From Clostridia bacterium (GTDB taxonomy: Bacteria > Bacillota > Clostridia > Monoglobales > Monoglobaceae), in the NCBI GenBank assembly GCA_045647905.1, contig JAZRMZ010000014.1, positions 8,303-72,302 on the forward strand: DNA of 64,000 nt, given 5' to 3'. The position numbers and the translations under genes are program-made. The notes under the pieces are model-generated. The model saw only the letters and a list, made by a program, of their open reading frames with translations, was not told the origin of the DNA and did not search any database. Of the stretch, positions 11,826 through 60,467 are shown in pieces. Positions within the stretch are counted from its first letter, which is position 1, and each line of letters starts with the position of its first letter.

Positions 11826-12009
11826 GAAAGATCTTTTGTTACACTCAGGATGACCCTGTATAGTTGGGGTTAATGTCATTCTGAGCCAAAGGCGAAGAAT
11901 CTTTTATTCCGGAATTTGCTGAAGAATCAATCAAAAATGGCGTGAATCACTTTTGTGATACACGCCATTTTCAGCTTACATTAAGATTCTTCGCTTACGC
12001 TCAGAATGA
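11826..12009. repeat. Three REP-like units (GTCATTCTGAGC-N6-CGAAGAATC family) flanking a terminator
   Basis: Units at 11826-11852 (inverted, degenerate), 11874-11903 (direct) and 11982-12009 (inverted). The same motif recurs at 21.7, 23.8, 24.8, 30.2, 30.6 and 50.4 kb. Confidence 0.8.
11932..11971. terminator. Bidirectional intrinsic terminator between the glycan locus and pfk
   Basis: AAAAATGGCGTG-N16-CACGCCATTTT. An 8-bp GC-rich stem is flanked by an A-run and a T-run. Confidence 0.7.
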
Positions 12010-29708: not shown

Positions 29709-29722
29709 GGTTTATTCTCCTT

Positions 29723-29819
29723 TGCATAAAAATTCATCAATATACACTATATTAAACCATAATTTAATGAAAAAATCAATAGTGTTTTTGCATAAATATT
29801 CAAAAATATTCATAAAAAT
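29723..29819 (-). promoter_or_regulatory. argC promoter region with ARG-box-like operators
   Basis: Minus strand: TTGATT (29779-29774), 17-nt spacer with TGn, TTTAAT (29756-29751). ARG-box-like palindromes ATGAATTTTTATGCA (29737-29723), TGAATATTTATGCA (29802-29789) and TGTATTTTTATGAATA (29819-29804) match TGAAT-N4-ATTCA. Confidence 0.6.
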
Positions 29820-29856
29820 ACATATAAAATACACAAATCGGATAATGGGAATGGAT

Positions 29857-29889
29857 AAAAGCCCCCGACATTTAGCGTCGAGGGCTTTT
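29857..29889 (-). terminator. Terminator-like hairpin insulating the arg promoter from the upstream repeats
   Basis: Minus strand: AAAAGCCCUCGAC-GCUAAAU-GUCGGGGGCUUUU, then AUCC. The one irregular pair is G.U on the minus strand. Confidence 0.55.
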
Positions 29890-29949
29890 GGGGAGTGCTT
29901 TGCGTCGCAGCAAATCAAGAGTCTGCTGCGCAATATGTAAATGTAAAAC

Positions 29950-30109
29950 AAAAAATGCGCAGCACGGAGCTACGCACGAAAAATGCATAACTCCTTATTG
30001 CTGCGACACAAGTTACACAAACATTTTCATTAGCATGTGAAAACAGAGCATGCATTTTTACCGAAATAAAAACAGCTGCCAATGAAATAGTTTTATTAAC
30101 TTATGTCGC
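29950..30109 (-). ncRNA. Candidate structured small RNA, paralog A (unnamed family)
   Basis: Promoter TTGTAA (30144-30139), 17-nt spacer with TGn, TATACT (30121-30116). Predicted start at G30109. Nt 1-13 pair with nt 95-107. Terminator UGCGUAGC-UCCGU-GCUGCGCA-U6 (29976-29950). Helices covary with paralogs B and C. Confidence 0.6.
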
Positions 30110-30205
30110 AAGTACAGTATATCACAAAAATGTGAAATTTACAAGAGAAAAGGATAAATTTATTTTATTTTTGTGGGTCTTTAGTAAACATTGAGATTTC
30201 AACGA

Positions 30206-30285
30206 AAAGATTCTTCGCCGTTGGCTCAGAATGACGTTAACATAAACTATGCAGAGTCATTCTGAGTGTAGCGAAGAATCTTTTT
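30206..30285. repeat. Inverted pair of REP-like units
   Basis: AAAGATTCTTCGCCGTTGGCTCAGAATGAC, 20 nt, then GTCATTCTGAGTGTAGCGAAGAATCTTT. Confidence 0.9.
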
Positions 30286-30343
30286 TGAGTGTTTTGCGTC
30301 GCAGCAAATCAAGAGTATGCTGCGCAATATGTAAATATAATAT

Positions 30344-30489
30344 AAAAAATGCGCAGCACGGAGCTACGCATGAAAAATGCATAACTCTTTATTGCTGCTA
30401 CGCATCTTATAAACCCGATCAAGTATAAAGAAATAGAGTCTGCATTTTTACCAAAATACAAACTTGAACGAGTTATTAATATACGTAGC
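30344..30489 (-). ncRNA. Candidate structured small RNA, paralog B
   Basis: Promoter TTGCAA (30524-30519), 17-nt spacer with TGn, TATTAT (30501-30496). Predicted start at G30489. 5' GCUACGUAU pairs with AUGCGUAGC. Terminator (30370-30344) is identical to that of paralog A. Confidence 0.55.
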
Positions 30490-30585
30490 ATTATTATAAT
30501 ACCATAAGACTGTAAATATTGCAATAGAAAAAGATAAATTAATTTTATTTTGTGGGTTCTTTAGCAAATATTGAGGTTTCAACGA

Positions 30586-30665
30586 AAAGATTCTTCGCCG
30601 TTGGCTCAGAATGACGTTAACACAAACTATGCAGAGTCATTCTGAGTGTAGCGAAGAATCTTTTT
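30586..30665. repeat. Inverted pair of REP-like units (second copy)
   Basis: Same sequence as 30206-30285 apart from one substitution in the loop. Confidence 0.9.
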
Positions 30666-30707
30666 TGAGGGTTTTGTTTCAATCGTTGTTACAGAACCGA
30701 TAATGAA

Positions 30708-30735: not shown

Positions 30736-31545
30736 TTAATCTTCTGTTGTTTCAGACTTTGCCAGAGACACAACCATACGGCGGTTTGGTTCTTCGCCGA
30801 TGCTGTGGGTTTTGATTCTGGGGTTATTCTGAAGTGCAGAGTGAATGATTCGTCTTTCGTTTGCTGTCATGGGTTCAAGTGTGATTGACTTCTTTTCACG
30901 GAGCACGCTTCGTTCAAGACCGTGTGCAAGACGGATGAGAGTATCTTCTCTTTTTGAACGGTAATTTTCGGTGTCGATATTTACCTTTACATAAGGCATA
31001 TTTTTGTTTCTGTTTACGTACAGAACGGTTAACATCTGAACAGCATCAAGTGTGTCGCCGCGCTTGCCTATGAGAAGTCCCATTTTGTCGCCCGAAACGT
31101 GAACGTTGATAACGTCTTTGTCCTGCTTTATGTGAAGTTCAACTTCAAGACCAACTTTTTTGAGAAGTTCAGAAACAAAATATTTTGCATCATCAACGGC
31201 TGATTTTGGAATTACGAAATCTTCGTCAACCTCGCTGCGTTTCTTTTCGGGCTTTGCAGGAGCTGCTTCGGGTGAAGGTGCTGCTGCTTTTTCAGCCTTT
31301 GCAGGCTTTTCGGCTTTGGGTTCTGCCGGCACCGCTTTTGCGGCTTCTTTTGCATTCTCTTTTTCTTCGTCAGCGGTTCTCCACGCAAGAATTTCAACTT
31401 CGGAGCCAACAAGGAATTTCATCAGGCCTTTGCCAATCTGTTTTGTGATTGTGTATGAAACTTCGTCTTTTGCAACGCCAAGTTCTTCTGCCGCCAAAGC
31501 AATTGCATCATCGAGATTTTTTGCGTTTTTTTCTACTTTTAACAT
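30736..31545 (-). CDS. jag: Jag/KhpB RNA-binding protein (Jag_N, KH, R3H domains)
   Basis: N-terminal VEKNAKNLDDAIALAAEELGV (Jag_N), a Lys/Ala/Pro/Glu-rich linker, and C-terminal LEPMTANERRIIHSAL (R3H). Confidence 0.9.
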   Translation of the reverse strand: MLKVEKNAKNLDDAIALAAEELGVAKDEVSYTITKQIGKGLMKFLVGSEVEILAWRTADEEKENAKEAAKAVPAEPKAEKPAKAEKAAAPSPEAAPAKPEKKRSEVDEDFVIPKSAVDDAKYFVSELLKKVGLEVELHIKQDKDVINVHVSGDKMGLLIGKRGDTLDAVQMLTVLYVNRNKNMPYVKVNIDTENYRSKREDTLIRLAHGLERSVLREKKSITLEPMTANERRIIHSALQNNPRIKTHSIGEEPNRRMVVSLAKSETTED

Positions 31546-54667: not shown

Positions 54668-54743
54668 GGGGGTGTAGCTCAGTTGGGAGAGCACCTGCCT
54701 TGCAAGCAGGGGGTCAGGAGTTCGACTCTCCTCATCTCCACCA
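54668..54743 (+). tRNA. tRNA-Ala (anticodon UGC)
   Basis: Cloverleaf read by hand: acceptor GGGGGTG/CATCTCC with G3:U70, anticodon loop CTTGCAA, T loop GGTTCGA-like, and an encoded CCA. Confidence 0.9.
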
Positions 54744-55095: not shown

Positions 55096-55132
55096 AAAAA
55101 CGGTAGATTCTGTCAGAATCTATCGTTTTTTT
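55096..55132. terminator. Bidirectional terminator-like hairpin
   Basis: AAAAACGGTAGATTC-TGTCA-GAATCTATCGTTTTT. Confidence 0.7.
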
Positions 55133-55139
55133 AACGAAA

Positions 55140-55258
55140 TAAATCCTACGGATTTGTGAAATACCCTTGGGGTGTGGAATATTGCTTCGCAATGTGAAAT
55201 ACGCCTTGCGGCGTGTGGATTTATTACATTTCACAGAAAACGTAAGTTTTCTATTTCA
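55140..55258. repeat. Degenerate array of small-hairpin plus GTGAAATA / TGTGGAWT units
   Basis: AAATCC-TAC-GGATTT GTGAAATA; CCC-TT-GGG GTGTGGAATATT...GTGAAATA; CGCC-TTGC-GGCG TGTGGATTTATT...TTTCAC. Period is about 38 bp. Confidence 0.7.
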
Positions 55259-55260
55259 CT

Positions 55261-55418
55261 AAAAAATGCGCAGCATGAGAGCTACGCATGAAAAATGCAC
55301 AACTCCTGATTGTTGCGACACAATTTACACAAAACATTCCCTAGCATGTGAAAACAGAGCATGCATTTTTACCGAAATAAAAATACACACCAGGGTCATG
55401 TTCATTAAATTATGTCGC
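55261..55418 (-). ncRNA. Candidate structured small RNA, paralog C
   Basis: Promoter TTGTAA (55453-55448), 17-nt spacer with TGn, TATACT (55430-55425). Predicted start at G55418. 5' GCGACAUAAUUUA pairs with UAAAUUGUGUCGC. Terminator UGCGUAGC-UCUCAU-GCUGCGCA-U6 (55288-55261). Confidence 0.6.
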
Positions 55419-55460
55419 AAACACAGTATATCACAAAAGATAGAAATTTACAAGAGGGAA

Positions 55461-59986: not shown

Positions 59987-60060
59987 GCGGGTGTAGTTCA
60001 ATGGTAGAATCTCAGCCTTCCAAGCTGATTGCGTGGGTTCGATTCCCATCACCCGCTCCA
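59987..60060 (+). tRNA. tRNA-Gly (anticodon UCC)
   Basis: Acceptor GCGGGTG/CACCCGC, anticodon loop CTTCCAA, and an encoded CCA. Confidence 0.9.
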
Positions 60061-60069
60061 GCAAGATAT

Positions 60070-60146
60070 GCGCCTGTAGCTCAGCTGGATAGAGCAATTG
60101 CCTTCTAAGCAATGGGTCAGGAGTTCGAGTCTCTTCAGGCGCGCCA
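60070..60146 (+). tRNA. tRNA-Arg (anticodon UCU)
   Basis: Acceptor GCGCCTG/CAGGCGC, anticodon loop CTTCTAA, and an encoded CCA. Confidence 0.9.
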
Positions 60147-60163
60147 CTTGCTTTTTTTTATGC

Positions 60164-60241
<78 letters not shown>

Positions 60242-60293
60242 CCAATTTTTTTCAAGGTGGCAGCGGACGACAGATTTCCGAGGCTATAGATAC

Positions 60294-60370
60294 TGGGCTG
60301 TAGCCAAGTCGGTAAGGCACCAGACTTTGACTCTGGCATTTCGTAGGTTCGAGTCCTGCCAGCCCAGCCA
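60294..60370 (+). tRNA. tRNA-Gln (anticodon UUG)
   Basis: Acceptor TGGGCTG/CAGCCCA, anticodon loop CTTTGAC, and an encoded CCA. Confidence 0.85.
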
Positions 60371-60391
60371 AATTCTTTAAAAACTAAATAT

Positions 60392-60467
60392 GGTCCATTA
60401 GCTCAGTTGGCAGAGCACTTGACTTTTAATCAAGGTGTCCCGCGTTCGAATCGCGGATGGATCACCA
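60392..60467 (+). tRNA. tRNA-Lys (anticodon UUU)
   Basis: Acceptor GGTCCAT/ATGGATC, anticodon loop CTTTTAA, and an encoded CCA. Confidence 0.9.

Follow-up and report, generated by a model that had tools for sequence, protein, structure and literature searches.

On the minus strand of a 64-kb window of Clostridia DNA (64,000 nucleotides (nt) of contig JAZRMZ010000014.1, the whole stretch analysed here), three intergenic RNA units of related sequence and structure, designated copies A, B and C, are found (Table 1). Copies B and then A are situated between jag/khpB (30736-31545) and argC-argJ-argB, within a tandem duplication of 380-394 nt that has a palindromic repeat element between the two units, and copy C is located between tRNA-Ala/Gut-1 and a response-regulator gene transcribed divergently. 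As expected of a trans-acting small RNA (sRNA), each copy has a sigma-70-type promoter and a terminator of its own and none has a co-transcribed open reading frame (ORF) behind it. A search of the window with a covariance model, filters off, found exactly these three copies at 135.8, 134.1 and 98.9 bits, the next match reaching 14.5 bits. The comparison with homologous loci described below identifies A, B and C as members of a large family of leader RNAs of about 150-180 nt from gut Oscillospirales, and the pairing pattern of this family indicates that it probably acts as a transcription attenuator, that is, a riboswitch-like terminator switch.

An earlier examination of the window, the sequence-only reading, had described copy A as an sRNA gene with two paralogues, and its coordinates, strand and sequence for the three copies are as it described them. 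The near-consensus promoters and the terminators that it had placed on the minus strand were found by promoter and terminator scans for A and for B, where a 9-bp terminator helix at 30371-30349 is followed by a U-run, and copy C has the same layout. The polarity is also right: copy A folds at -61.2 kcal/mol on the minus strand (z = -6.83) versus -39.7 kcal/mol on the plus strand (z = -3.85), and across the family numerous G-U pairs would become A-C mismatches on the opposite strand. The designation as an sRNA gene holds in that the unit is strand-specific and structured, with its own promoter, its own terminator and covarying helices, but the arrangement of terminator, antiterminator and anti-antiterminator, which is not visible from the three window copies and was missed by that reading, points to a cis-acting attenuator.

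Table 1. Positions of the three RNA units, their segments and the adjoining hairpins in the window
Feature	Position	Strand	Description	Basis
Promoter of copy A	30116..30144	-	-35 TTGTAA (30139-30144), 17-nt spacer ending in TG, -10 TATACT (30116-30121)	promoter scan
Copy A, entire RNA unit	29950..30111	-	P1-P2-P3-P4 rod, delta, terminator, U-tract	covariance model, 134.1 bits
Copy A, P1 5' strand	30097..30111	-	UUGCGACAUAAGUUA	fold and P1 covariation
Copy A, P1 3' strand	30001..30015	-	UAACUUGUGUCGCAG	fold and P1 covariation
Copy A, apical P4 hairpin and beta	30045..30074	-	UGUUUUUA / UUUCGG / UAAAAA	P4 covariation
Copy A, beta	30045-30060	-	UAAAAAUGCAUGCUCU, able to pair with delta	beta:delta covariation
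Copy A, delta	29978..29994	-	GGAGUUAUGCAUUUUUC, predicted strand common to the pseudoknot (with beta) and the antiterminator (with the terminator 5' arm)	
Copy A, intrinsic terminator	29950..29977	-	GUGCGUAGC-UCCGU-GCUGCGCA, then U6	9-bp helix 29977-29955 in terminator scan
Promoter of copy B	30496..30524	-	TTGCAA-17-TATTAT with TG	promoter scan
Copy B, entire RNA unit	30344..30491	-	beta 30435-30450, delta 30372-30388, terminator 30344-30371	covariance model, 98.9 bits
Promoter of copy C	55425..55453	-	TTGTAA-17-TATACT with TG	same layout as A and B
Copy C, entire RNA unit	55261..55420	-	beta 55356-55371, delta 55290-55306, terminator 55261-55289	covariance model, 135.8 bits
Hairpin after the terminator of A	29900..29933	-	3' arm UUGCUGCGACGCAA	complementary to P1 3' strand of A plus AGCAA linker
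Hairpin after the terminator of B	30294..30327	-	paralogue of 29900-29933	
Second terminator-like hairpin	29857..29889	-	AAAAGCCCUCGAC...GUCGGGGGCUUUU, between copy A and the argC promoter/ARG boxes	

Homologues were collected with two sequence patterns. The first of them, GGTAAAAATGCA-N40-70-TGCATTTTTC, gave at least 120 loci in species-representative genomes, and the carriers among the listed matches are nearly all metagenome-assembled genomes of gut and rumen Clostridia labelled Oscillospiraceae, Acutalibacteraceae, Ruminococcus or Eubacteriales, with Ruminococcus bicirculans among them. The second pattern, which is independent of the first and uses P1 only (GCGACAYAA-N80-110-TTGTGTCGCARCAA), gave at least 120 metagenome loci. 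A covariance model built from 45 units, R1, matched a unit in all of the 100 P1-pattern metagenome loci searched, with scores from 155 down to about 45 bits, and it also found extra copies that fit neither sequence pattern. The family that the sequence-only reading counted as three, a number correct for the window, comprises several hundred members at least and is multi-copy per genome, with tandem units in the window (B then A) and at two homologous loci (L034 and L084). At gathering thresholds, Rfam 15 recognised in the whole window only six tRNAs and one Gut-1 RNA and none of the three copies, in agreement with the earlier remark that the RNA was not recognised as any named family. When the three units were scanned at E <= 10, only noise appeared, together with a match of copy C to GcvB (RF00022; 30 bits, E = 7.7e-5, gathering threshold 42) that A and B do not have. 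An Rfam scan of 20 homologous loci gave no match on the units, while it detected a true T-box (in L094), an L10 leader and Gut-1 at these loci. The family is not described in Weinberg 2017, in Narunsky 2024 or in the first 200 supplementary files of Fremin & Bhatt 2021, and a keyword search of the literature was likewise empty. It is thus uncatalogued, but of a known kind, the attenuator or riboswitch-like leader.

The individual folds have a common layout that consists of a rod (P1, internal loop, P2 and P3), the apical hairpin P4, the segment delta and the terminator. In the rod, P1 (13-16 bp) is followed by an internal loop that is asymmetric and has a conserved AAUA on its 5' side, then by the variable P2 and by P3; P4 is an A/U hairpin (UAUUUUUA-loop-UAAAAAU) followed by single-stranded GCAUGCUCUAUUUUC as a 3' bulge; and downstream of P1 come AGCAAUC-GGAGUUAUGCAUUUUUC, the latter being delta, and the terminator. 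Every unit inspected is preceded by a -35 and a TG-extended -10 element placed for a start at the first P1 pairs. Because the length of P2 varies, a plain MAFFT alignment gave RNAalifold no helices other than P1 and the terminator, and the helices were analysed with anchor-based duplex tests, in which each 5' strand was paired with every 3' strand to compare cognate and non-cognate duplex energies, and with a hand-specified covariance model. Cognate strands of the rod paired at a mean of -41.8 kcal/mol versus -18.4 kcal/mol for non-cognate ones, and at -21.8 versus -8.6 with P1 trimmed off. The same test did not sustain a hairpin GCAUG-N11-CAUGC that had been drawn inside the unit, for which cognate and non-cognate duplexes are the same (-3.72 versus -3.65 kcal/mol); its 3' arm pairs instead with the strand 5' of P4, forming P3 (-12.9 versus -6.2, median rank 2-3 of 113). 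In the model-based alignments, double-sided changes occur at 15 of the 15 pairs of P1, the closing helix in which compensatory differences of A and C from B had already been noticed, and at 8-9 of the 9 terminator pairs, a helix that is 99.5-99.9% paired. The hairpin first seen as UUUUUA-UUUCGG-UAAAAA is P4, with 7 of 9 pairs doubly changed in the unbiased, P1-anchored set. Covariation of P1, P4 and the terminator, together with the rod energies, provides the support expected for the structured domain of a riboswitch or attenuator. The possibility that the unit contains a conserved small ORF (AUGCAU after GGAG) was considered and rejected, since the spacing from GGAG to AUG is 2-3 nt and the frame crosses terminators that differ in length from copy to copy.

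The central observation concerns the delta strand (GGAGnnAUGCAUUUUUC), which, judged by complementarity, is a segment with two mutually exclusive partners, namely beta, which comprises the bulge and the 3' strand of P4, or the 5' arm and loop of the terminator. The stretch AAAAAUGCAU-(G)-CUCU of beta complements GGAG-(UU)-AUGCAUUUUU of delta, and the 5' part of delta (GGAGUUAUGCAU) complements the terminator 5' arm and loop (GUGCGURGCUYC); beta in turn alternates with the local hairpin P4, where it pairs with alpha. Beta and delta are paired at 94.0% in the first set and at 90.4% in the unbiased set, versus at most 70% in slid controls, and 74 cells have changes on both sides, versus 21.5 +/- 6.4 after shuffling, a value that none of 500 shuffles reached. 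The pairing of delta with the terminator 5' arm amounts to 90.7% and 88.2% in the two sets, with 63 double-change cells versus 22.3 +/- 7.8 in shuffled data. The three strands also change together. At one position the alpha/beta/delta triplets are A-U-A (25), A-U-G (14) and G-C-G (14), at the next position they are C-G-C (43), U-G-C (20) and U-A-U (8), and the triplets of beta, delta and the terminator 5' arm covary likewise (C-G-C, U-A-U). At most positions, both alternative pairings are possible in 74-98% of the sequences. Over 194 sequences, the median cognate rank was 17-22 for the rod interior with delta, 40 for delta with the terminator 5' arm and 2-5 for the terminator, versus 56-78 for a control pairing. 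Together these results show a chain of mutually exclusive helices, in which either P4 and the antiterminator or the beta:delta pseudoknot and the terminator are formed. Pairing, controls and three-way covariation thus concur in the mutually exclusive terminator and antiterminator, coupled to a rod domain, by which an attenuator is recognised.

Variants of the unit carry the same alternatives. In a divergent subfamily that is very common in assemblies from the human gut (about 60 bits with R1; L130, L158, L159, L185 and numerous metagenome loci of identical sequence), the sequences of beta, delta and terminator have been re-coded, and the unit is usually followed by a gene for a 173-aa uncharacterised protein; here beta AAGUGUUUCUCUC and delta GAGAGAUGCGCUU pair at 12 of 13 positions, and delta GAGAGAUGCGC and the terminator 5' arm GUGCGUCUCUU at 11 of 11. 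Long-insert variants of 200-220 nt have an extra hairpin in the 5' half (L002, L020, L058, L061, L114 and L052:1198-1418), and the variable parts of their beta and delta differ (AAUUCC/GGGGUU) yet pair perfectly. In the isolated tail of copy A the antiterminator has -17.7 kcal/mol versus -14.8 for the terminator, and the full-length nested minimum-free-energy fold also uses the antiterminator; the corresponding values are -13.7 versus -14.5 for B and -12.0 versus -14.8 for C. The beta:delta duplex has about -15 kcal/mol, the energies of the pseudoknot being duplex approximations.

A mechanism can be proposed on this basis, in which we infer both that the alternatives regulate termination and the direction of the switch. 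A strong sigma-A-type promoter would start transcription at the first P1 pairs, and the rod and P4 would fold first. On emerging, delta could begin to pair at the single-stranded bulge and from there invade P4 to form the beta:delta pseudoknot, leaving the terminator 5' arm free, so that the terminator would form and an RNA of 150-180 nt would be released. If beta were unavailable, withheld by an extended P4 or by an effector bound to the conserved core of P4, bulge and delta, delta would pair with the terminator 5' arm and loop and the polymerase would read into the ORF. The balance would be set by an effector that holds or blocks beta; within the attenuator interpretation, a small molecule and a protein or RNA are about equally likely. 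NusG-dependent pause motifs are known, and by analogy the U-rich UGCAUUUUUC may be a possible pause site. The near-invariance of beta and delta beside freely covarying P1, P2 and terminator suggests that these two segments are the recognition core. More tentatively, the family might represent a new riboswitch class for a global signal, for example a second messenger, or orphan and terminated copies might act in trans on the beta and delta of their siblings.

The genes behind the family members add positional evidence. Of the 200 distinct units whose flanking DNA was long enough, 130 (65%) are followed by an ORF of at least 40 aa that is preceded by a Shine-Dalgarno (SD) sequence and starts 10-39 nt past the U-tract, an arrangement found at 23 of 434 random positions (5%). 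These 130 occupy the position of a 5' leader, and A, B and C do not; the earlier statement that there is no common downstream gene therefore applies to the three window copies and fails for the family, about two-thirds of which lies directly upstream of an SD-preceded ORF. The annotatable ORFs encode mostly cell-surface proteins, and the picture is the same in two independent sets: BspA-type LRR_5 proteins account for 7 of 65 and 7 of 60, and LRR_8, SLH, dockerin, Flg_new (Listeria-Bacteroides repeats) and NlpC/P60 proteins, lectins, peptidases and some helix-turn-helix regulators are also present. Several small proteins are recurrent, among them M-DYK-MYYELFN (about 45 aa), a 77-aa family and Cys-rich proteins of 55-66 aa, none of which was recognised by Pfam or NCBIfam. 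When ORFs of at least 100 aa at 117 loci were clustered, the largest clusters of neighbours were leucine-rich-repeat (LRR) surface proteins (12 loci) and ABC exporters (10 loci), and neither a conserved neighbouring regulator gene nor any further recurrent family was present.

The leader position has to be weighed against the idea of a free-standing family of trans-acting sRNAs, in which a terminated transcript of about 160 nt would function through invariant beta and delta, by pairing with mRNAs or by titrating a protein, and the downstream ORFs would be incidental. The unit does have its own consensus promoter and a strong terminator, about one-third of the members, including the three window copies, have no ORF behind, beta and delta are nearly invariant across species, as a seed or a protein site would be, and in some orphans there is an additional conserved hairpin with complementarity to the P1 3' strand. 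However, the excess of SD-preceded ORFs 10-39 nt after the U-tract, a distance that leaves no room for a separate promoter, is not explained in this way, it is hard to see what a plain sRNA would do with a conserved, covarying antiterminator in competition with the terminator, and no target or partner protein was identified. As an account of the whole family this idea is therefore unlikely, while an sRNA-like product is plausible for the three free-standing copies in the window.

Some observations weigh against the attenuator itself. About a third of the units, the window copies among them, lack an ORF, and the heterogeneity of the downstream genes allows no ligand to be inferred. Since many positions of beta:delta and of the antiterminator are invariant or change only by G-U wobble, their covariation is weaker than that of P1 or the terminator. 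The sequences of beta and delta are conserved far beyond what pairing needs, which fits a binding core but also a trans-acting seed. Finally, the alignments were fitted to the covariance model and the homologue sets were picked by sequence patterns.

A different view of the orphans is that the unit is a constitutive 5' module or a decaying relic, a duplicating promoter-leader cassette that dampens or stabilises expression and senses nothing, the window copies being remnants after gene loss. The tandem duplication that gave rise to A and B, with the palindromic repeat between them, would suit such a cassette, as would the multi-copy occurrence beside unrelated genes with no conserved neighbour. 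At one homologous locus (L030), moreover, a 704-aa ORF that immediately precedes argC-argJ is driven by a family member, so that copy A sits where relatives have a regulated gene. This view is nevertheless improbable, because compensatory changes in every helix, between paralogues as well as orthologues, reveal long-term purifying selection, orphans score like gene-linked units (134-136 bits) and have kept consensus promoters, and two alternative folds maintained by three-way covariation would be needless in a passive module. An origin in a mobile element or repeat, as an IS/TnpB guide RNA, a miniature inverted-repeat transposable element (MITE), a retron non-coding RNA or a type I antitoxin, is far less probable still. 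It could account for units that are multi-copy, sometimes tandem and, in the window, near a palindromic repeat, and for the small and hydrophobic nature of some downstream ORFs. Yet no recurrent transposase, TnpB, IscB, reverse transcriptase or toxin was found among the clustered neighbours, the first sequence pattern had no match in 2.9 million viral contigs, and the copies have diverged with covariation instead of being near-identical. With the attenuator retained as the best explanation for the family, the window copies are intact orphans that would yield mainly terminated RNAs of 150-160 nt, and they probably represent either leaders left over after their gene was lost or free-standing RNAs with a function in trans.

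The surroundings of the window copies present further features. In the hairpins after the terminators of A and B, the 3' arm is complementary to the P1 3' strand plus AGCAA (-28.4 kcal/mol, z = -6.8). Similar boxes follow the orphan units of L077, L094, L080 and L052, though not units generally, and pairing of the P1 3' strand with a downstream box was rejected as a family trait, being strong only in A, B and a few loci. The two hairpins might either change the folding of transcripts that have read through or define a non-coding 3' extension that is regulated. Three direct repeats of 26 nt (TTTGCATAAAnATTCA...) at 29721-29822 stand between copy A and the start codon of argC and look like ArgR/AhrC ARG boxes, so that the argCJB operon would have a promoter and regulation of its own that do not depend on copy A. 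A palindromic repeat of about 80 nt, resembling repetitive extragenic palindromic (REP) or MITE sequences (AAGATTCTTCGC..CTCAGAATGAC..GTCATTCTGAGCC..GGCGAAGAATCTT), occurs three times in the window, at 30209-30290, 30589-30670 and near 11875-11901; two of the three lie inside the A/B tandem duplication, and the same element follows the unit in L077. Gut-1 is a motif known mainly from gut metagenomes, with no function assigned. The Gut-1 RNA of the window (RF01706, 67.8 bits) lies on the plus strand at 55132-55205, 55 nt beyond the terminator of copy C, a second one (63.7 bits), at L083:3249-3320, precedes a family member by about 145 nt, and the unit in L014 has a Gut-1-like GUGAAAU/hairpin array beside it, so that Gut-1 may be a recurrent neighbour of the leader family. 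The window also contains five clustered tRNA genes at 59987-60467 (Gly-Arg-His-Gln-Lys), a separate tRNA-Ala at 54668-54743 on the plus strand and the origin-proximal genes yidD-yidC-jag, and this tRNA cluster together with the origin-proximal genes indicates that it is chromosomal DNA of a low-GC Firmicute.

Few bacteria of the gut and rumen are as abundant, or as hard to work with, as the Oscillospirales (Ruminococcus, Acutalibacteraceae and Oscillospiraceae), and to our knowledge almost nothing is known about their gene regulation. An abundant, strongly covarying candidate three-state switch in front of adhesin-like surface proteins and small proteins would qualify as an orphan riboswitch or attenuator, and to identify its effector would be to learn which signal reshapes the cell surface in major commensals of the gut. 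As comparative evidence for an expression platform, the three-way covariation is unusually clear-cut. The family would also extend Rfam and genome annotation, where the units are now unannotated or mis-called as small ORFs. Should it prove to be a second-messenger riboswitch or a self-referential RNA network, many genes for BspA-LRR, SLH, dockerin, lectin and small proteins would be co-ordinated in each genome, and this would operate in dominant Oscillospirales of the gut and rumen.

Among the known systems with which the family can be compared, GcvB, the only one with a sub-threshold Rfam match, is a gammaproteobacterial Hfq-dependent sRNA that adjoins gcvA. It shares with the units G/U-rich stretches and a terminator, but it was rejected as an identification because its 30 bits fall short of the gathering threshold (42 bits), the architecture is unrelated and the neighbours are jag/argC and tRNA-Ala/response regulator. 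T-box leaders resemble the family in their long rod-like 5' domain, in the competition between antiterminator and terminator and in their multi-copy occurrence per Firmicutes genome, whereas the family has no specifier loop, T-box sequence or antiterminator bulge. Assignment to the T-box leaders was rejected as well, since the Rfam T-box model misses the units though it detects the true T-box in L094, the antiterminator is bulge-free and the genes behind the units are of other kinds than the aminoacyl-tRNA or amino-acid genes that T-box leaders control. Listeria SreA/SreB and EutX/Rli55, which are riboswitch-derived or riboswitch-controlled sRNAs, offer an analogy for a terminated leader that persists as a stable RNA with a function in trans, and the orphan units with a short 3' extension (the hairpin at 29900-29933) would by the same analogy resemble riboswitch-controlled non-coding RNAs. 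In the pyr attenuators of Bacillus, which respond to PyrR, anti-antiterminator, antiterminator and terminator follow in succession and share strands. The same strand-sharing series of pyr/PyrR and trp/TRAP leaders recurs in the family, unlike which they have a local hairpin as anti-antiterminator, where the family has a pseudoknot between the apical bulge and the 3' tail; the units also contain no PyrR or TRAP motif or Rfam match and are linked to no gene for a cognate protein. Also among the closest systems are riboswitches whose terminator/antiterminator platform is gated by long-range pairing, such as the L5-L13 kissing loop of cobalamin riboswitches and the pseudoknots to the 3' tail in ZTP, preQ1 and SAM-II riboswitches. 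Unlike these, the family matches no Rfam model, precedes no coherent metabolic set of genes and has many copies per genome, a third of them orphans. Like them, it comprises a promoter-bearing 5' leader with a covarying domain, a 3' segment that can pair with either the sensor domain or the terminator, and an intrinsic terminator directly upstream of the ORF.

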